Source of the DNA: Giardia intestinalis
Lineage: Eukaryota
Assembly (NCBI GenBank): GCA_000002435.2
Contig: CM018793.1
Length of the DNA stretch: 64,000 bases
Reading direction: 5' to 3' (one strand)
Both the position numbers and the translations under genes were made by a program. Positions 11,747-20,349 of the stretch are shown piece by piece; position 1 is the first letter of the stretch, and every line of letters starts with the position of its first letter. The notes under the pieces are model-generated. The model saw nothing but the letters and a program-made list of their open reading frames with translations, did not search any database and was not told where the DNA came from.

Positions 11747-13024
11747 ATGCCCCTCAATCTCTACTATGCAGGTCTTTACGAGCAGTGCCTTTCGTCTATC
11801 GCAGTAGAGAAGAAGCGTGGGACCACGCACCAGCTGCTCCACACAGAGGGTCTGGCTCTGCGTGCACTCAACAGAATATCCGAGGCGATAAGCTCCTTTC
11901 TTGCATCCCAGAAGCTAGACCCCTTCGACCAGTCTACCACTCTAGAGTTGGCTAAGTGCTTCTATCTCCAAGGAAACTACCCCTCTGTTATCGCACAGTG
12001 TGATAGCATAATTTCAACAGAAGGTCGGGCGCCCTGGCTTGCACATCAACTGCGAGGATTGGCATCCTTCCGCATGGGTGACAGACATGCAGCAGAAAAA
12101 CATCTTTTTCTGGCATATGACCTTCATCCAACACTGCAAGCGAAGCAACTTATAGGAGAGCTACAGGCAGCAGCCGGCAAATCGCAAGAGGCTATAGCTA
12201 CAATGAACGATATTATAGCATTATCACCAGAGTCCATCAACGTGCTCATTGAGCTGGGACTCTTGTACGTTAAGTTGAACTCTCTAGATGATGCATTCGA
12301 ATGCTTCTCTAGAGCAGTGATAGCTGTACAAAAGCAGCTGGCATGTAGAAGCAGCATGACTCTCTCTACTCCGCAAGACTCGTTTATTTTCAGTCCGGCA
12401 TTTTTCTCTCTTGGGTACACAATTCAAGCTAAGGACCCACGGACTGCTTTGTTGAAATACAGAGTGGCAGCAAGCCTTAAAGGGGACAGCAAGGATCCGC
12501 ACATATGGGCTAATCTTACCTATGTGTTTGTCTCGTTAAGCAACTTAGAGGCCGCTCTCGTCTGTGCTACTCGTGCGTTTCAGTTGAACTCCACGTCTGA
12601 ACCTTGTAGGCGTGCCCTGGGCCACGTGTACATCTGCCTAGGTGACTACTGTAGGGCGTTCCAGATCCTTTCCCCAGCCATGGGAGACACCCGGGCATAT
12701 GAGTCCCAATGGCTACTTGGTATTGCAGCCGCGAAGCTGGGTGAACTTCGAATAGCTATGGTGTGCCTTTCAAAAGCTGCTGACGGAGGGCTTTATGCTG
12801 CATGCTTGACGGGACTCTTGATTTTTCTACAGGCCAACGACCTGACTACCGCGGCACAATTCTCCGTCAAACTCAAGGAACTGGATCCCGATAATGATGA
12901 GAATCTACGGCAAGGGAAGGCTGCTATTAAACGCTTACGCAAGCTTGTTCAAGAAGAGAATTCGACCGTGGAGGGACAGGCTGTTTCCGAAAAGAACGAG
13001 CAACTAACCACTACCGATGGCTAG
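11747..13024 (+). CDS. tetratricopeptide (TPR) repeat protein
   Basis: ATG at 11747. There are several 34-aa helical repeats with TPR-like W/LG/Y/A/F/A/P spacing ([16 protein letters not shown]..., [14 protein letters not shown]..., [21 protein letters not shown]...). Confidence 0.65.
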
Positions 13025-13637
13025 CTGCTGCACTCAGCATGAGTCCCCATGCCTCTTGCCACATGATCTCCCGGCCCTTGATCGAAAAGGCGGGACCCGT
13101 GCAGGGCTTTGAAAGACGGCCAGAAGAGGTGGAAAGGGTTGGCTGTGTTCTCTGCGTAGTGAGGGCAAACCGAGATGCTTGAGGTGGTGATTGAGAGCGT
13201 ATGTGGGGAATGCTAAGGGATCCAGAGCGGTATAGAGGAGAAGCAGCTCTGCTGTGTGCCTGCCGGCAAGGCGTGACGTTATATACTACTTGGGTTACCG
13301 GGCTGCGACGCATGTTAAGTGAATACGTAATCTCCTTTGCAGGAGGCGACGTGCTGCGATATGTTTCTGACCAAGGAGAAGGGAGTAAAGAGCCTTTAGT
13401 AGTCCTTTTGAGAGAAAGATCTTTATGCCCAGGTGATTTCCTCTCAGTGTGCGTCAGGTTAACAGGGCTTTGGCTCCTATTCAAAAGATTGACAGTCGTG
13501 GACCTCGAAGACAGCAAGGGATTGGTTGAGGGTCTCAGCTCGTTCTCTATGCGAGCCCCTCGAGGATCGAAGTCTCGCCTAATACTGTAAGCAGCCGGAC
13601 CAGGACTGGTCACTCCTGTTCTGAACCAACTCGCCAT
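13011..13637 (-). CDS. S/T/P-rich protein with N-terminal PG-rich (PGPAAY) motif
   Basis: ATG at 13637 gives [25 protein letters not shown], the same N-terminal architecture as the PG-rich repeat genes at 16644..17528 and 17588..18442. The track extension to 13703 starts on TTG. The frame differs from the upstream ORF 13700..14647. Confidence 0.5.
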
Positions 13638-13699
13638 TTTTCTAATATCAGATAAGATTTGGTAGCATCCGAGGAACTGCAAATTCACTCTTGCAAGCG

Positions 13700-14647
13700 T
13701 CAAAAATCGCTGATTCTAGAGCCCTGCTTGGATATCTTACTCAGGTTAGCACGCAGATTGTTTGTGATCGGCGTAGAAGTTAAGTATGATGACGTCGGAA
13801 GCAAAGACCCCGTGGACACACCCGTGACGGAGTCCACGCGGTTATCATACAGCAGGGTATCGGTTCCTCGCTTGAACGTGCTTATGTGGAGGTTCACAGG
13901 GTCCTTAGCCAGGACATAGTCAACCTCACGCCTATGCTCACGAATATCTTTGTTTATATTGTTTGCGTGAAACATGAATGTGTGTGCTGTGGTTGATGTA
14001 GGCTGGCGCTTGAACCACTCATCGTTATGTTGTGGCTCTTCCACACGCGTTTTCTGCTTCTTGGAGCCGATAGTTTTCATCATACTTTCTTTCTTTACGC
14101 TCAGAGAGTCAACAGGGGCCACCAATCTATCCCTGTACCTCTCTATGTAATTGGGGTCGCTCAGGGCTGGTGTGCGTCTGGTAGCTGCGCGCTTGGTCGG
14201 CGTGGTGAGGTGGTGATCCTTTTGAGTGGTGCCGTCCCCCTCTTTTCGCAGAATTTGTACATTCAACGTCTCGGGGTCGCGGGTTGTTTTGGGGGAATGA
14301 TCGACCTTAAAGAATTGCTCTACCTTAAACGAAGGCTCCAGGTCTGCCATCTGGGCCGCAGCACTGTGCTGCAAGCTGGGGTCCATAAGAGGATTCTCCA
14401 CAACATAGTGCGAGGGAGGCCCTGTAAGGCCTGATACGCTTTGAAATTTGATCGGAAGACCCTGAGATCTCGACCGCGTATATGTCCGTGGCTCAACCTC
14501 CTCTATTCCCAACTGGCGTGCAAAATCATCAGGCCGGGCCCGCGTGCGACCCCCCTGTGTGGACGTCATAGACATCGAAGCGCTAACACTCATAAAGGGC
14601 TGGTCTGGTATCCCAGAACTAAGGAGGTTTGCAGAGGTCTTGAACAT
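13700..14647 (-). CDS. hypothetical S/T-rich protein
   Basis: ATG at 14647. Low-complexity S/T/P-rich composition. It ends 62 bp upstream of the next ATG (13637), or is fused to the downstream ORF if a frameshift is present. Confidence 0.5.
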   Translation of the reverse strand: MFKTSANLLSSGIPDQPFMSVSASMSMTSTQGGRTRARPDDFARQLGIEEVEPRTYTRSRSQGLPIKFQSVSGLTGPPSHYVVENPLMDPSLQHSAAAQMADLEPSFKVEQFFKVDHSPKTTRDPETLNVQILRKEGDGTTQKDHHLTTPTKRAATRRTPALSDPNYIERYRDRLVAPVDSLSVKKESMMKTIGSKKQKTRVEEPQHNDEWFKRQPTSTTAHTFMFHANNINKDIREHRREVDYVLAKDPVNLHISTFKRGTDTLLYDNRVDSVTGVSTGSLLPTSSYLTSTPITNNLRANLSKISKQGSRISDF

Positions 14648-14788
14648 GCTTGCGTGGAATTTTTGGTGGGGGTAAAATTTATTTAGTTTTTCAGAAGCTC
14701 CGCACGCAAATCAGAGAAGCGAAGCTGTGGCTAGGCGAAGTAAGGGACGAGTTTGTTTACAAGTCTGTTGACAGCCCATAGGAGGCGC

Positions 14789-15778
14789 TCAAGAGAGGGT
14801 GCTCACTGTTAGAGGGCGGCTAGTAGAAGTGGCGTTCTGAGTGACGTTGCCGATGGTGCGTATCGTTGCGCTTCTGTCGAAAGTCCCCAGCTCAATTCGT
14901 GCATTACCATGCTCATACTCTGAACTGTACCGCAGAGGCCCATTAAGCGTCCCATTATTTTTAGGAGCGGTTATCACCCTGGTTGTGTCGACCTTCGGCT
15001 TCCCTATGAGGGCGTCCGGGAACAGGTCAGGATTGTAGCTGGACTGCGCAAGGGCCCGGTTCTTAATAACGCTACAAGAGCTATAGACACCCATGGGATT
15101 GTAGTCACTGATATCCCCCTGGTTGAATTGCAGGAGCTCCGGGAACGGCTTACCACTCAGACCAGAGTGGCTATTATCCACGTAGCTTCTCGTAGGACGG
15201 TACTCCCCAGACAGAGAGACAGGTGAGCGGCGATAGCCGGGCTCTGTGGTTGTGACGGCACCAGAGTAAGAGGGGGCGACATCTCTCGGCACATCCGCGC
15301 CGTAAAAGTCCTTTCTTGTGTACTTGGGTACCTCTATGTCAGGGTGTACCGTCAGCTGCGCATTGATCTCTTGCATTTGACTGTCCAAGGCCTGAAATAA
15401 GTTGGTCCTGGTACTCCTTTCGGGCAGCACGCGCATCGAGGCAGTGAGGCCCAGCTCTTCTGCCAACGAATCGCGGAGGATGGACTCGTGAAGGCTTGGC
15501 TTGGACATCCCCGGGCTCCTCCGTTCGCAATAGCTGGTGGACCTGCCTCCGGATGGGGTCAGGAGTGAAGCAGCACCGTTTGGCCGAGCACGGACACGGT
15601 TCTTTAGCGGGGTGAGTGAGCGGATTGCCGAGCCGTGGCGTCCATCGGTAATGAGAGAGTACCCAGGCATCCTTTTTTGAATTCTATTTTTGCGGCTGGC
15701 GCGCGGAAGCACCGGGCTACACGCAAATGGTCCAATGGCACCAACGAATACCAGCCCTGGTTTACTCTGCGGTCCCAT
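14789..15778 (-). CDS. hypothetical S/T-rich protein with degenerate PG motifs
   Basis: First ATG at 15778 (MGPQSKPGLVFVGAIGPFA...); the track start at 15805 is TTG. Contains PGY, GPFA and EPGYRRSP motifs reminiscent of degenerate PG-rich repeats. Confidence 0.45.
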   Translation of the reverse strand: MGPQSKPGLVFVGAIGPFACSPVLPRASRKNRIQKRMPGYSLITDGRHGSAIRSLTPLKNRVRARPNGAASLLTPSGGRSTSYCERRSPGMSKPSLHESILRDSLAEELGLTASMRVLPERSTRTNLFQALDSQMQEINAQLTVHPDIEVPKYTRKDFYGADVPRDVAPSYSGAVTTTEPGYRRSPVSLSGEYRPTRSYVDNSHSGLSGKPFPELLQFNQGDISDYNPMGVYSSCSVIKNRALAQSSYNPDLFPDALIGKPKVDTTRVITAPKNNGTLNGPLRYSSEYEHGNARIELGTFDRSATIRTIGNVTQNATSTSRPLTVSTLS

Positions 15779-15797
15779 ACCGGTGCAGGCTGGTCCT

Positions 15798-16550
15798 CTA
15801 CGCAAAAATCTGGCCGGCTGTGCTCTTGAAAAACGTTGTAGTATTGTAATTATGTAAATTCAGTCCAGTGTATGTTTGGTCCGAGAACCTGCGTCCAGCC
15901 AGCGTGTTGACACGCCCTGTACTGTAGGACTCCATGGTTGTAGGGTAGCACTTGATGCTAGAGTAGTTGCGGAGGGCAGACTCCGAAAGGCAGCCGTCGC
16001 GGAACGAGCCTGCCGTAGAGCCAAGAGTGTACTGAGAAGACAGCAGGCGGTTCACGCTGTCCACAGACGATCGCCTGTAGCTCTTCGTCTGGGCTCCCCC
16101 AATACCACTGACGGAAGACTCTGCCCTGCACTCATTGTACGGTGCGCCGCCAAACTTCCCATAGCCGCTGCTCCTGCGGGTAAGAGCGATGGACGCCTTA
16201 TCGCGTGGGAAGGCGTCATAGAACGACGATGCCTTGTACTCGTTAATCGGCGGAGCGTCCAGCTGGCTATACTTAATTGGGTCAGGATACATCGTCGTTA
16301 CCAGAGAGGCCTTGGAAAGTTCTGGGGCCTTGACACGTGTGTAATCCCCGTACTCATGGATGTGGCCGGTCGCAGCGTAGCAGGGATTTGAGGGAACTAT
16401 GTGAACTGCGTTGATGTGGCTGTGGTATGCATCCACGGGTCCTGTCGACTTCCCGGCCCGCGGGTAGAGGTCTACGGTGTGCATAGTCTTCTTTAGGGTG
16501 GTGGACGGGATGTTGCGGGCTACTGGGTCATGGGCGGTTGAGGATAACAT
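15798..16550 (-). CDS. hypothetical S/T/Y-rich protein
   Basis: ATG at 16550. Contains TGPVDAYH and many Y/S/T residues. Its stop lies 19 bp upstream of the ATG of the next ORF, in a different frame. Confidence 0.5.
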   Translation of the reverse strand: MLSSTAHDPVARNIPSTTLKKTMHTVDLYPRAGKSTGPVDAYHSHINAVHIVPSNPCYAATGHIHEYGDYTRVKAPELSKASLVTTMYPDPIKYSQLDAPPINEYKASSFYDAFPRDKASIALTRRSSGYGKFGGAPYNECRAESSVSGIGGAQTKSYRRSSVDSVNRLLSSQYTLGSTAGSFRDGCLSESALRNYSSIKCYPTTMESYSTGRVNTLAGRRFSDQTYTGLNLHNYNTTTFFKSTAGQIFA

Positions 16551-16643
16551 GATATTTTTTCGGGCATCTTTTTTAACGAGGCGGAAAAGCTAAAGGAAAG
16601 CCAGAGGAAAGTTTCCGCCAAGAAACATCAGGCTACGCATGTA

Positions 16644-17528
16644 TTAGGTCACTATATTCTGGTAAATGTAGTGTCTCCTTGAAAAGCTAAACGCAGGGGC
16701 TCTGCGTGTAGTTAATGTTAAACTACCAACATGGTAATGCCCTGGCCCGGGAGAAATCGTCTGAATCCCCTCGCAGACCTCGTTGAGTGACCTACCTTTC
16801 CGTTGGATCGTGAATGCAGGTGCGCTTCTTCTGAGCAGTCTAGGGTGGTATCCAGCCGGCCCTGGGCCTAATGTCTCTGTCGTCTGCCTGTGTCGAGACC
16901 CGAACGTGAACCCAGATGACGAGCACCACCGAGCAGGAACTTTAGGTGTGTAGTCTGCTGGGCCGGGAGCAGGGGCAGAGAGACTCAGGGGTCCTGTTGC
17001 GGGACTGGAGACAGGCCGCATGCCTATCGTCCCTCCGTGGATGCGGGGCCAGAGAGGCGTCATGCTCACCTGGTAATCTCCAGGCCCTGGAGTGGCATCC
17101 TGTGGCGGTGACCGGGGACGGCCCGAGATGCTTGAGGCTCTCGCAGACCGATGTGTTACAGCAATGCTTGGGATATGGTAATCTGCGGGTCCGGGGCTTC
17201 GCTCACGCAATACAGCAGACTGTGCTCTCCGAGGTTGGGTGCTAAATCGGTACGCTGGGGAGCGATGCCGGAGTGCGAGGGCGTTGCCATGATAATCACT
17301 GGGCCCCGGCGTGGACTGTATGCTAGATTGGCTTGTACGGCTCCTCATAGTGAACGCAGGCCCAGGATTGCGAAGGATTGGTGTGTAGTCAGCTGGCCCC
17401 GGAGATGACTCTACCGCCGAATTGTTGTAGCGCCTCTGAATTGTGAAGCGGGGACCGTCGTTTGTGCTTTTTGGACAATATCCGCCCGGACCAGGCCCGA
17501 TTGAGATGACATCGTTCCATTCTGGCAT
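16644..17528 (-). CDS. sperm-tail PG-rich repeat (SHIPPO/ODF3-like) protein
   Basis: ATG at 17528 (MPEWNDVISIGPGPGGY). At least eight repeats of PGP(G/A)xY...GPAFT(M/I) (PGPADYTPILRNPGPAFTM, SPGPADYHIP, TPGPGDYQV, PGPADYTPK, GPGPAGYHP...SAPAFTI, SPGPGHYHV). The track start at 17573 is TTG. Confidence 0.8.
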   Translation of the reverse strand: MPEWNDVISIGPGPGGYCPKSTNDGPRFTIQRRYNNSAVESSPGPADYTPILRNPGPAFTMRSRTSQSSIQSTPGPSDYHGNALALRHRSPAYRFSTQPRRAQSAVLRERSPGPADYHIPSIAVTHRSARASSISGRPRSPPQDATPGPGDYQVSMTPLWPRIHGGTIGMRPVSSPATGPLSLSAPAPGPADYTPKVPARWCSSSGFTFGSRHRQTTETLGPGPAGYHPRLLRRSAPAFTIQRKGRSLNEVCEGIQTISPGPGHYHVGSLTLTTRRAPAFSFSRRHYIYQNIVT

Positions 17529-17587
17529 GGCGTATACAGATTGCCCAGTGTTTTTGAACAAAAATTGTTGCAAATTTCAATTTTGCT
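17529..17587. promoter_or_regulatory. shared AT-rich divergent promoter / initiator region of the two PG-rich repeat genes
   Basis: A 59-bp AT-rich spacer (ttgcccagtgtttttgaacaaaaattgttgcaaatttcaattttgct) lies between two divergent ATGs. Giardia promoters are short AT-rich initiators close to the ATG. Confidence 0.5.
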
Positions 17588-18442
17588 ATGAGCTGCTATG
17601 AGTATGTTTCTGAGGGCCCAGGACCAGGAGCGTATAACATACCGAGCAGCTTCACTTCTGCACGCTCATCTTCTAGGTCCCAATCGGCTGGAGCTCGCAG
17701 TAAGCGAGTTTCGGAGTCATCAGCAACCATCTCTGCAGTGGCTCAGAACATGTCTCGTCTCCATAAGCGCGTGCCCACTAAGTTAAGCGCTTCTAACTAT
17801 CAAACCGACGTAACCCCAGGGCCTGGAGCTTACAACTCGACAGGTCTGGAGCTTAAGAGTCACGGCCCCTCATTCTCTATAGGCCCCTCTCGTTCTCTCT
17901 CTCAGTCAGGAATGAGGCAAACTAGTAGGTCGAATTCTAGATCTGCGTCCCGCTCGACCGCACTCTCTGCAGTTTCCTATTCCTTGCTTGGAACACGTGC
18001 GACCAACCGGAGTGGCATAGCGCAAGATACAGCGACAGCTGGTGAAGTGCCTGGACCTGGGATGTACGACGTAAACATCTCATATGTCACGAGTAGCTCT
18101 CCTTCTTACTCCTTTGGAATCCGCTCCAAGACTCCGAAGCAAGGCCCCGTCACCCCTGGCCCTGGTGCATACAATCCGCGACCTCAGAGTTCGGGCCCAT
18201 CTTTTTCGCTGAGTGGGAGAAGTCCAGTGCGTAAACCCCGTACAGAGTCTCCCGGCCCCGGGGCATATAATCCTCAGCTGAAGAACACTGGTCCTTCCTT
18301 CTCCATGGGTGGAACGAGGAGCCCTGTACGAATACCGCAAGCAGATATCCCCGGCCCTGGAGCCTATGACTACAAGTTGCGCAACAACGGTCCCGCATTT
18401 ACGATGAGGAGCCGCAGCCCCGTCAAGCAGTACGTTGTCTAG
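17588..18442 (+). CDS. sperm-tail PG-rich repeat (SHIPPO/ODF3-like) protein
   Basis: ATG at 17588 (MSCYEYVSEGPGPGAYNIP). Repeats TPGPGAYNST...GPSFSI, VPGPGMYDV, TPGPGAYNPRPQSSGPSFSL, SPGPGAYNPQLKNTGPSFSM, IPGPGAYDYKLRNNGPAFTM. It is divergent from the paralog at 16644..17528. Confidence 0.85.
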   Translation: MSCYEYVSEGPGPGAYNIPSSFTSARSSSRSQSAGARSKRVSESSATISAVAQNMSRLHKRVPTKLSASNYQTDVTPGPGAYNSTGLELKSHGPSFSIGPSRSLSQSGMRQTSRSNSRSASRSTALSAVSYSLLGTRATNRSGIAQDTATAGEVPGPGMYDVNISYVTSSSPSYSFGIRSKTPKQGPVTPGPGAYNPRPQSSGPSFSLSGRSPVRKPRTESPGPGAYNPQLKNTGPSFSMGGTRSPVRIPQADIPGPGAYDYKLRNNGPAFTMRSRSPVKQYVV

Positions 18443-18483: not shown

Positions 18484-20349
18484 TCACATTCTGTCGATCT
18501 CACGGATTCCAAGCAAGTGGAATGCCAGGCGGAGGCTCTGACGGGCCATTTCACACAGGACAAGACGAGATTTGTTGCAGACGCTGTCCCCAGACGCAGA
18601 AGTCTCAATGACTCGGCACTTTTCATAGAAGTCTGTGTACGCGGAGGCTACAGAGTACACCCAGTCACAAATACGGTGCGGACACAGATCTTCTAGAGTA
18701 AATAGAATGGTATCACGGACCTTCAACAGCGCAACTAAGAGATTAATTTCAGAGGGTTCTGTGATAGACAAGTTCCTGAGAGTGTCACTGGTGTAGAGCT
18801 CTTCCCGATCGATTCCGGCTTTGCGACAGATAGACGAGATTCGCGTAAAGCTATACAACAGGTATGCCGCAGTATTTCCTTTCAGATTGAGCATTCGCTT
18901 AGGGTCATACTTATAGTCCTTAATCCTGTGAGAGGACAAGTCAGCATATTTGACAGCTCCGTAGCCGACAGCCTCTGCAACCTGGCGCATTTCCTCTTGG
19001 CTGAACTCTTGGTCACGGTTGCGCTCCTCAAGGAGCCGCATGGACTCCGTGACCGCCTCATCGAGCAAATCCTCCAGCTTAACGGTCTCTCCTGCTCTTG
19101 TTTTGAGGCGCTTGCCATCGCTTCCGAGCACAACCCCGAATGGGACGTGCACGGCCTGGTCCTTTGTGATCCAGCCAGCCTTCTCAGCAGCTTTGAAAAC
19201 AAGATCAAAGTGACTCGACTGGCCGGCGTCAACAACGTACACGCACTTGTCCGCGTGAAGGACCTGGGTGCGGTGATAAATAGCTGCCATGTCTGTTGTG
19301 TCGTAAGTAAAGCCGCCGTCGGACTTGACGATGATGAGAGGATAGTCCATCCCCTCAATTGGTATGACAGTTGCCTTGTCGGACATCTGAGTCAAGTGGA
19401 GCCTTTTCAACCGCGCGACAGTGGTGCCCAGCTTGAACTTGTAGGAACTCTCTCCAAACTCATCAATCTTGATGTCTAGGCGATCATAAATGCGCTGAAA
19501 CTCGTGCCTAGAGATGTCACAAATCTTGCACCAGAGGTAAAACTCTGCCAAGTTGAGGCGTTGTAGCTTGACAACAGCCTCATAGGCCCGCTTCTGGAAG
19601 GCTGGATCGTTGTCAAATCTCTCCTTTGCTGCTTTGTAGAAGGCCACAAGGTTGTCGATTGGAAGCATTGTTATGCGCCTGCAGTGAGCCGCAGCATCAG
19701 CTATCTCTGGATGCATATCCGTTAGGTGAGTGATGAGCATGCCGAACTGCGTGCCCCAGTCGCCCACGTGGTTGATGCGGTGGACGTCATACCCCACATA
19801 CTCATAGAGACGGCAAATAGAGTCCCCGATAATCGTTGATCGCAGGTGACCCACGTGCATAGACTTTGCCACGTTAGGTGACGAAAAGTCGACGACAACG
19901 CGTTTTCTGGGTAGAGTGGGAGGCTTTGGCAGAGTCCCAAACGGCACGGCCATGTAGATGTCAAAGCACTTCGAAAGCAAATATGCAGGGGTGAGTGCAA
20001 TGTTTATGAAGCAGCCTGCTATATTAACTGCCTCTATGGGCTTGGGGCACCCCTTTTCCTCTGCATATTTGTCTTGGACACAAAGCATTGCTTGAGTGAA
20101 GAGACCAGACAGTTCGGCAGGATTTGACGGGAGTGCATCGTAGTGAAGATCCTTGATAAGCTTAGCAATGCCCATCGTGCTGTTGAACTGATAGTGCCCG
20201 TACTTAATGTTTGTGGTCGGCGTGACAAGAGGGGACGTGAAAACGCCGAGCATGCTCTCCTTCCAGCCTTCCTGAGCCGAGAGAGGGGCAATGTGATCTC
20301 CAAGAACGGTGTGCATGGCCTGGGCGCATATGTCCTTGAGGTCCTCCAT
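18484..20349 (-). CDS. arginyl-tRNA synthetase (class I)
   Basis: ATG at 20349. FSSPNVAKSMHVGHLRSTIIGD is the ArgRS HIGH-region variant. DWGTQFGM is also present, and the C-terminal anticodon-binding (DALR-type) region is present (NTAAYLLYSFTRI). Confidence 0.9.
   Translation of the reverse strand: MEDLKDICAQAMHTVLGDHIAPLSAQEGWKESMLGVFTSPLVTPTTNIKYGHYQFNSTMGIAKLIKDLHYDALPSNPAELSGLFTQAMLCVQDKYAEEKGCPKPIEAVNIAGCFINIALTPAYLLSKCFDIYMAVPFGTLPKPPTLPRKRVVVDFSSPNVAKSMHVGHLRSTIIGDSICRLYEYVGYDVHRINHVGDWGTQFGMLITHLTDMHPEIADAAAHCRRITMLPIDNLVAFYKAAKERFDNDPAFQKRAYEAVVKLQRLNLAEFYLWCKICDISRHEFQRIYDRLDIKIDEFGESSYKFKLGTTVARLKRLHLTQMSDKATVIPIEGMDYPLIIVKSDGGFTYDTTDMAAIYHRTQVLHADKCVYVVDAGQSSHFDLVFKAAEKAGWITKDQAVHVPFGVVLGSDGKRLKTRAGETVKLEDLLDEAVTESMRLLEERNRDQEFSQEEMRQVAEAVGYGAVKYADLSSHRIKDYKYDPKRMLNLKGNTAAYLLYSFTRISSICRKAGIDREELYTSDTLRNLSITEPSEINLLVALLKVRDTILFTLEDLCPHRICDWVYSVASAYTDFYEKCRVIETSASGDSVCNKSRLVLCEMARQSLRLAFHLLGIREIDRM

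Follow-up and report, generated by a model that had tools for sequence, protein, structure and literature searches.

A divergent pair of SHIPPO repeat genes and a probable degenerate paralogue among unrelated genes in Giardia intestinalis

Do the six neighbouring open reading frames (ORFs) that occupy positions 13011-18442 of a 64,000-nucleotide stretch of Giardia intestinalis DNA (hereafter the window, whose coordinates are used throughout) represent one tandemly expanded family of SHIPPO (sperm-tail PG-rich) repeat genes? A first-pass annotation of this sequence had proposed that they do, and had further suggested that three of the ORFs are partly decayed and that two others, arranged head to head, form a unit co-regulated through a shared bidirectional initiator. 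We find a different arrangement to be likely, in which three of the genes, rather than all six, belong to the family of SHIPPO or sperm-tail PG-rich repeat proteins (ODF3/CIMAP1/STPG). Two of these are the divergent pair GL50803_29227 and GL50803_10522, each probably transcribed from its own initiator within a short constrained spacer, and the third is a probable relic, GL50803_29229, which is split from the pair by the unrelated Giardia-specific genes GL50803_10527, GL50803_17468 and GL50803_10524.

The sequence under study belongs to G. intestinalis WB (ATCC 50803), and each of the eight proteins that we tested in the interval 11.7-20.3 kb matches a protein of this isolate exactly. Each of the six ORFs is present where the first-pass annotation had placed it (Table 1), with five on one strand (13011-17528, minus) and one on the other (17588-18442, plus), and a composition rich in Ser, Thr, Pro and Arg is common to them all. 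The genes are called below by the numerical part of their locus names, of which GL50803_29227 was assigned from the gene order given in the supplement of PMC8866875. Besides WB, our comparisons employed G. intestinalis P15, two more lineages of this species represented by a contig from a Nepalese gut metagenome and by a Logan contig, and Giardia muris. The gene order is identical in all three of the additional G. intestinalis lineages.

The divergent SHIPPO pair

The two genes that lie head to head encode proteins identical to XP_001708524.1 (29227) and XP_001708523.1 (10522), both of which bear the annotation 'SHIPPO repeat domain-containing protein', and in P15 the orthologue of 29227 goes by the name 'H-SHIPPO 1'. 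The pair is real and ordinary, and its identity was already known before this analysis. When compared with the Pfam family PF07004 (SHIPPO-rpt), for which the gathering cutoff is 20 bits, 29227 scores 74.5 bits (E=5.6e-21, five stretches) and 10522 scores 111.4 bits (E=8.7e-33, six stretches), and the G. muris orthologues of the pair reach 36.2 and 87.5 bits. No other ORF among the six passes this cutoff. Together with the lack of similarity of the three middle ORFs to SHIPPO or to one another (see below), this is essentially the outcome that the first-pass annotation had itself named as refuting its proposal.

Eight PGPxxY units are present in 29227, at amino acids (aa) 12, 43, 74, 112, 147, 188, 222 and 260, with a spacing of 31-41 aa. 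The 10522 protein carries six PGPGxY units, at aa 11, 77, 155, 190, 222 and 255, which are spaced by 32-35 aa except for two double-length, Ser-rich linkers of 66 and 78 aa. These counts agree with the six to eight repeats originally described for the two genes. The N-termini read M-x10-PGPGGY and M-x9-PGPGAY, such that the PGPGxY start proposed earlier is correct and its M-x7-9 spacing is off by a trivial amount. In comparisons of WB with the other G. intestinalis lineages, the ratio of nonsynonymous to synonymous substitution rates (dN/dS) is 0.07-0.10 for 29227 and 0.04-0.08 for 10522.

The number of units in orthologues of 10522 varies, with seven PGPGxY motifs in a 314-aa protein from one lineage of the G. 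intestinalis complex (an extra 32-aa unit), six in the 284-aa WB protein and five in the 219-aa protein of G. muris. The orthologue of 29227 in the metagenome locus L005 is an intact ORF, and its apparent truncation reflects the start chosen by the gene caller.

Homologues that match PF07004 number in the hundreds across eukaryotes, and some of the relatives of the pair are structurally characterised (8snb, 8otz, 8iyj and 9e5c, E=3.8e-9 to 5.7e-5). A phmmer search with 10522 recovers PDB chain 9e5c_0r, described as 'Sperm-tail PG-rich repeat', at E=3.8e-9, along with ODF3/CIMAP1A chains, and a search with 29227 recovers the ODF3/CIMAP1A chains of the doublet-microtubule cryo-EM structures 8snb, 8otz and 8iyj. 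The ODF3/CIMAP1A proteins of animal sperm doublets share the same Pfam repeat with the Giardia proteins, match them directly in sequence (E=6e-7 to 6e-5) and are composed, like them, of PGPxxY ... GP(A/S)F(S/T) units, with lengths of 251-277 aa as compared with 284-294 aa for the pair. Identity is about 25-35%, and the double-length Ser-rich linkers are a feature of Giardia 10522. Unlike ODF3/CIMAP1A, the Giardia proteins have a conserved M-x-x-W/Y...GPGPG N-terminus. To our knowledge, Giardia has no outer dense fibres.

In Tetrahymena, P-G-P-G-x-Y has been shown structurally to be a microtubule-binding motif, and linkers of ~40 aa act as 8-nm spacers that set successive motifs on successive dimers in the outer inter-protofilament wedge (Kubo et al. 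2023, PMC10105768). The Tetrahymena proteins STPG1A, STPG2 and ODF3L carry PGPGxY every ~40 aa, and the 31-41-aa linkers of Giardia fit this scheme but are shorter. Ciliate ODF3L-like proteins are also the best non-Giardia matches of both 29227 and 10522 among the matches listed, although they are longer (about 400-450 aa, with up to 12 motifs), and the binding mode of the Giardia proteins is one that we infer from such relatives rather than one that has been observed. Within Giardia, the SHIPPO proteins DAP9148 and DAP103164 occur on the disc, axonemes and median body (bioRxiv 10.1101/361105). These disc-associated proteins (DAPs) come from the same organism and domain family as the pair and are encoded at different loci, and neither is present among the 120 matches listed for the 29227 search and for the 10522 search.

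From end to end, the proteins 29227 and 10522 are homologous and collinear (hhalign probability 98.5%, E=2e-15, 258 columns; Smith-Waterman z=11.9). Because G. muris retains the same synteny (BBS4, three genes, a SHIPPO gene on the minus strand, a SHIPPO gene on the plus strand and arginyl-tRNA synthetase, ArgRS), the inverted pair is, on the evidence of gene order, older than the split between G. intestinalis and G. muris. A local inverted duplication is the likely but unproven origin of the pair. Some observations sit uneasily with this origin, since each protein scores higher against the ciliate ODF3L-like proteins of ~400-450 aa than against its partner, such that the supposed 'duplication' may be ancient, or the two genes may have become neighbours only later, and we could not show that the two are mutually closest paralogues. 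Longer repeat proteins do inflate similarity scores of this type.

By homology with the solved doublet-microtubule proteins of Tetrahymena and sperm, the pair would be extended, non-globular microtubule-associated proteins. Each PGPGxY motif would dock on one tubulin dimer in the inter-protofilament groove, and the linkers of 31-41 aa would serve as 8-nm spacers. With its eight motifs, 29227 would track about eight dimers. The long linkers of 10522 are ~2x the unit length, and so this protein, with its six motifs plus two double-length linkers, may span a similar length of roughly eight dimer positions.

Several considerations temper this functional proposal. The eight-slot reading of 10522 is linker-length arithmetic and not a structural result, and our literature searches yielded neither localisation nor binding data on 29227, 10522 and 29229. 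Searches on the localisation of 10522, 29227, 29229, 10527 and 17468 returned expression and proteomic tables only, and neither member of the pair is named in the main text of the DAP preprint (bioRxiv 10.1101/361105). In the one proteome examined, that of trophozoites, there were no peptides for 29227 or for 29229. The same data include four peptides for 10522, as compared with nine for 10527, eleven for 17468 and seventeen for 10524, and 10522 was also detected, alongside the disc protein 10524, in the proteome of a peripheral-vesicle fraction (PMC3986054).

GL50803_29229 and the three middle genes

The third candidate member, 29229, begins as the first-pass annotation had described, and retains one PGPAAY motif near its N-terminus (aa 12-17) and a GPAFSIKGR segment at its C-terminus (aa 181-189), with a fast-evolving interior that is rich in Ser, Thr, Pro and Arg. 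These termini are invariant in the alignment of the four lineages, and the interior is 47-78% identical. When a hidden Markov model (HMM) built from the 14 Giardia repeat units is applied to 29229, it returns a score of 19.5 bits that is reached by none of 500 shuffled sequences, and this score derives from two half-repeat matches, namely SPGPAAYSI at aa 11-19 and a segment at aa 177-189. In profile comparisons with hhalign, the N-terminus pairs with the N-terminus of 10522-family proteins (P=0.005), and the C-terminus pairs with the C-terminus of 29227-family proteins (P=0.004).

Alignment of WB 29229 with the G. muris orthologue of 10522 is collinear over 205 aa at 27% identity, with a BLASTP E-value of 2e-6 in this single comparison. 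The corresponding Smith-Waterman score is 97 as compared with a shuffle mean of 37.5 (z=9.9, equalled in none of 1000 shuffles), and a reversed-sequence control scores 36. Decayed positions of 29229, for example PSPWSETY, face SPGPGSY in this alignment. Furthermore, when the four orthologues of 29229 are each compared with SHIPPO targets, nine in number, every one of the 36 z-scores is above zero (0.4-9.0), whereas those of the middle genes centre on zero.

A number of results nevertheless run counter to this assignment, and they permit the view that 29229 is not a SHIPPO protein but an unrelated, fast-evolving protein of low complexity, or a non-functional ORF, whose PGPAAY and GPAFSI segments arose by chance or convergence. 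The protein falls below the PF07004 cutoff (12.3 bits, E=0.43), as do its orthologues (16 bits for one and no hit for the others), and the hhalign probabilities for its termini are only 7-8%. Multiple, regularly spaced PGPxxY motifs are absent, and a single PGPAAY at aa 12 is found in all four lineages. The other three orthologues of 29229 match the same G. muris target more weakly (z 0.7-4.2), several of the orthologue-by-orthologue z-scores lie below 2, and the Smith-Waterman match of 29229 to WB 10522 is marginal (z=2.8). In RNA data from metronidazole-resistant lines (the supplement of a drug-resistance study), the 29229 transcript has a log2 value of about 3.3, which is ~25-fold below those of 10527, 17468 and 10524. 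Added to this are the lack of peptides mentioned above and the lack of a counterpart of 29229 at the syntenic locus of G. muris.

We consider such a chance resemblance unlikely. Both half-motifs lie at the extreme termini, exactly as they do in 29227 and 10522, and they have remained invariant across lineages that are separated by synonymous divergence (dS) of up to 1.9. Neither the repeat-model score that no shuffle matched, nor the collinear alignment whose forward score so exceeds its reversed control, nor the uniformly positive z-scores set against controls centred on zero would be expected of an unrelated protein. The ORF is also intact in four lineages with dN/dS values of 0.21-0.29, which are 4-8x those of its neighbours and still below 1, and for this reason we regard it as coding. 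Homology of 29229 to bona fide SHIPPO proteins, in the sense of descent and not of current membership, therefore has moderate support, and we think it quite probable that 29229 is a lineage-restricted, degenerate SHIPPO paralogue. Thus, its inclusion in the family by the first-pass annotation appears justified, most likely as a degenerate member. Its internal repeats would have decayed, with conservation now confined to the opening PG motif and the closing GPAFS half-repeat. The gene shows weak expression, and selection on it is relaxed yet remains purifying.

The ORFs that separate 29229 from the pair had likewise been assigned to the family, as partly decayed copies with degenerate PGY/GPFA motifs. 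It is understandable why such a proposal might be made, given that all six proteins are Ser/Thr/Pro/Arg-rich, that five of the genes share a strand, that 10524 is a cytoskeletal (disc) protein, and that the G. muris orthologue of 10527 yields mildly positive z-scores (1.2-2.9) against SHIPPO proteins. However, the motifs in question do not rise above chance by any of four approaches. Pfam searches with 10527, 17468 and 10524 give no hit at E<=1, and the same is true for the G. muris counterparts. Scores of the three proteins against the custom 14-unit HMM fall within those of composition-matched shuffles, and Smith-Waterman comparisons of the middle ORFs with the SHIPPO genes and with one another give z<=1.6. 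Finally, hhalign comparisons of five-sequence orthologue alignments with both SHIPPO families give P=0.25-0.7 (0.25 and 0.5 for 10527, 0.5-0.7 for 17468, and 0.3-0.5 for 10524), and comparisons among the middle gene families give P=0.18-0.48, as against E=2e-15 for the positive control of 29227 with 10522.

The idea of decay is also contradicted by the substitution data. Comparisons of WB with the three other G. intestinalis lineages give dN/dS values of 0.03-0.06 for 10527, 0.03-0.05 for 17468 and 0.03-0.07 for 10524, matching those of ArgRS, BBS4 and a V-ATPase proteolipid subunit. Since values of 0.03-0.07 signify strong purifying selection, the middle genes are not decayed. A six-member tandem family was thus rejected as a candidate, with only 29227 and 10522 clearly alike (z=11.9), 29229 and 10522 marginally so (z=2.8), and all pairs that involve any of the middle three at background. 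We regard the six-gene proposal as very improbable and as effectively refuted at the level of sequence. The appearance of a decayed family of six is an artefact that stems from proteins rich in Ser, Thr and Pro.

The GPFA motif that had been noted in 17468 also has a specific explanation. In an older model of this gene (329 aa, start at 15778), the first 36 aa form an N-terminal extension that other lineages do not share, and GPFA resides within this extension rather than in the coding region that is conserved. Translation from the conserved start would begin with MPGYSLI at 15670, a start that is kept in P15 and L005 and is the one adopted in the current RefSeq entry XP_001708526.2. A 338-aa ORF of 17468 that begins with TTG likewise carries a non-conserved N-terminal extension. 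There is no detectable similarity (Smith-Waterman z=-0.2) between 17468 and the G. muris gene in the same syntenic slot (L001 7161-7811, minus strand), and either extreme divergence or non-orthologous replacement could account for this.

The other two middle genes have clear G. muris orthologues by BLASTP (E=1e-51 for 10527 and E=2e-24 for 10524). An exhaustive phmmer search with 10527 against 1.84e9 representative sequences returned two matches, both from Giardia, and a word-indexed protein search with 10524 returned proteins of the G. intestinalis complex only. Models made with AF2 have mean confidence (predicted local distance difference test, pLDDT) values of 44 for 10527 and 31 for 10524, which indicate no confident fold and derive from very shallow alignments. 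Proteins that are constrained and abundant and yet predicted to be foldless, as are 10527 and 10524, would fit the pattern expected of extended lattice-binding proteins.

For 10524, a cytoskeletal location comes from the literature. PMC8866875 describes the protein as 'localized to the adhesive disc' and, citing Nosala et al. 2020, counts it as one of 87 DAPs. This localisation is second-hand, and a literature search on the term 'DAP10524' found nothing. The earlier suggestion that the locus encodes proteins of cytoskeletal type is accordingly sound for at least one of the middle genes, 10524, by virtue of the disc, and not through any SHIPPO homology.

The spacer between the pair and its putative initiators

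The start codons of the pair lie at 17528 (minus strand) and 17588 (plus strand), which leaves the 59-bp spacer (17529-17587) that the first-pass annotation had reported. The spacer measures 57-60 bp in the four G. intestinalis lineages and includes several conserved blocks. Its identity to WB is 83/70/60% in the three other lineages, as compared with 65/50/39% at fourfold-degenerate sites of the adjacent genes, and because it exceeds these sites in conservation, the spacer is functional.

Two elements within the spacer resemble Giardia initiators. The most conserved block in the four-lineage alignment is AAATTTCAATTTT, an AT-rich, initiator-like element that ends 3 nt upstream of the 10522 ATG and may include the region of transcription start. 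It is similar both to ATTTCAAAAAA and ATTTTAATTTT, two published variants of the Giardia initiator, and to the CAATTT element (PMC3792122). Farther toward 29227 is the quasi-palindrome GTTTTTGAACAAAAA, in which a GTTTTT run is invariant in the four lineages. Its minus-strand reading, TGTTCAAAAAC, is initiator-like, ends 21 nt upstream of the 29227 ATG and resembles the variants AATTCAAAAAA and ATTTCAAAAAA. Likewise, the part of it that lies at 17550-17558, GTTTTTGAA, is initiator-like when read on the minus strand, 21 nt before this ATG. These features suggest that the spacer holds two apposed AT-rich initiators, one per gene, rather than one shared element, and that each SHIPPO gene would be transcribed from its own initiator within this constrained segment. 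Caution is warranted because the assignments are based on likeness to published consensus variants, and the initiators remain putative.

Initiation that is bidirectional or closely apposed occurs genome-wide in Giardia (PMC1885649, PMC3792122), where 23-29% of transcribed regions are in bidirectional pairs (PMC3792122). The bidirectional or apposed AT-rich initiators described by Teodorovic et al. 2007 (PMC1885649) and by transcription start site sequencing (TSS-seq, PMC3792122) have a similarly short AT-rich spacer with an initiator-like element near each ATG, and nothing sets the 59-bp spacer apart from this class other than its position between two paralogues.

Could the spacer instead function as one bidirectional initiator that serves both SHIPPO genes and couples them, selected, for example, for stoichiometric production while flagella or the disc are being assembled? 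Conservation of the spacer exceeds that of synonymous sites, its length is kept in four lineages, it has a quasi-palindrome, TTTTTGAACAAAAA, at its centre, Giardia promoters are inherently bidirectional (PMC1885649), and the divergent orientation of the pair is retained in G. muris. However, the G. muris spacer is 410 bp (L001 9591-10000), so tight coupling is not conserved, and in G. intestinalis the spacer block with the highest conservation is an initiator-like element of its own, close up to the ATG of 10522. Short divergent spacers are also the norm here, because five of the seven divergent gaps between ORF models in the window (96, 59, 44, 226, 77, 91 and 1303 bp) fall within 44-96 bp.

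Expression data lend little to the idea of coupling. In the RNA data sets noted above, which sample metronidazole-resistant lines rather than the cell cycle or differentiation stages and are thus a weak test of co-regulation, the correlation between 29227 and 10522 is r=0.49 (n=20) and 0.26 (n=18), and 28% of the 1711 pairs among 59 neighbouring genes match or exceed the value of 0.49. Mean RNA levels of the two genes differ about 2.6-fold, and protein was seen for 10522 only. Therefore, although the spacer is constrained, the co-regulated unit that had been proposed for this pair is weakly supported, and a shared coupling element appears doubtful to us. The preferred explanation, with an initiator for each gene, makes this arrangement the usual compact layout of Giardia and an ordinary one, rather than a special co-regulatory device.

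The 410-bp spacer of G. muris is unusually long for a compact genome, given that the divergent gap between the V-ATPase and BBS4 genes at the same locus is 14 bp, and we found no convincing ORF inside it.

Neighbourhood and significance of the locus

The features of the locus are collected in Table 1. The BBS4 homologue and 29229 overlap tail to tail by 14 bp (13011-13024) in WB and likewise in P15, and the overlap shortens to 4 bp in the two remaining G. intestinalis lineages. In G. muris, it is the orthologue of 10527 that overlaps the BBS4 homologue tail to tail, by 48 bp.

Table 1. Genes and promoter elements at the SHIPPO locus of G. intestinalis WB, in window coordinates.
Feature	Position	Strand	Description
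BBS4 homologue	11747-13024	+	flanking gene
GL50803_29229	13011-13637	-	208 aa; probable degenerate SHIPPO paralogue
GL50803_10527	13700-14647	-	315 aa; Giardia-genus-specific, outside SHIPPO family
GL50803_17468	14789-15670	-	293 aa from conserved start; outside SHIPPO family
GL50803_10524	15798-16550	-	250 aa; ventral-disc-associated protein, outside SHIPPO family
GL50803_29227	16644-17528	-	294 aa; SHIPPO (sperm-tail PG-rich) repeat protein
Divergent spacer	17529-17587	.	59 bp; promoter region of both SHIPPO genes
Quasi-palindrome GTTTTTGAACAAAAA	17550-17564	.	motif positions; putative function
AAATTTCAATTTT	17572-17584	+	AT-rich initiator-like element, 3 nt upstream of 10522 ATG; putative transcription start region
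GL50803_10522	17588-18442	+	284 aa; SHIPPO repeat protein
Arginyl-tRNA synthetase (ArgRS)	18484-20349	-	flanking gene

A broader interpretation of the locus is that the genes from the BBS4 homologue through 29229, 10527, 17468 and 10524 to the SHIPPO pair make up a gene cluster with a cytoskeletal function in the genus Giardia, in which the middle proteins would be extended binders of the disc or axoneme lattice that work with 10522. This possibility is raised by the expression of 10524, whose RNA is the best correlate of 10522 among 58 neighbouring genes (r=0.93, in the top 1.2% of the 1711 pairs) and remains correlated with it in the second data set (r=0.69), even though another gene lies between the two. 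In addition, Gl17468, Gl10524 and Gl10522 co-fractionate, in that all three are listed in a single proteome of a peripheral-vesicle fraction (PMC3986054). We view a cluster of this kind as improbable on present data. If it does exist, then 29229 could be a neofunctionalised derivative with a single PG motif rather than a dying gene.

The value of these findings is mostly corrective, in that the SHIPPO pair was already annotated and the six-gene family is not real, and they leave the understanding of SHIPPO proteins and of Giardia transcription unchanged. There is, however, a modest gain in annotation, because the 'hypothetical' gene 29229 can now be annotated as a probable, degenerate paralogue of the SHIPPO genes that is confined to the G. 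intestinalis complex. Furthermore, 10527 and 17468 are Giardia-specific, highly constrained and abundant, and they reside beside a disc protein and two PG-repeat proteins, which would make them reasonable candidates for a localisation screen.

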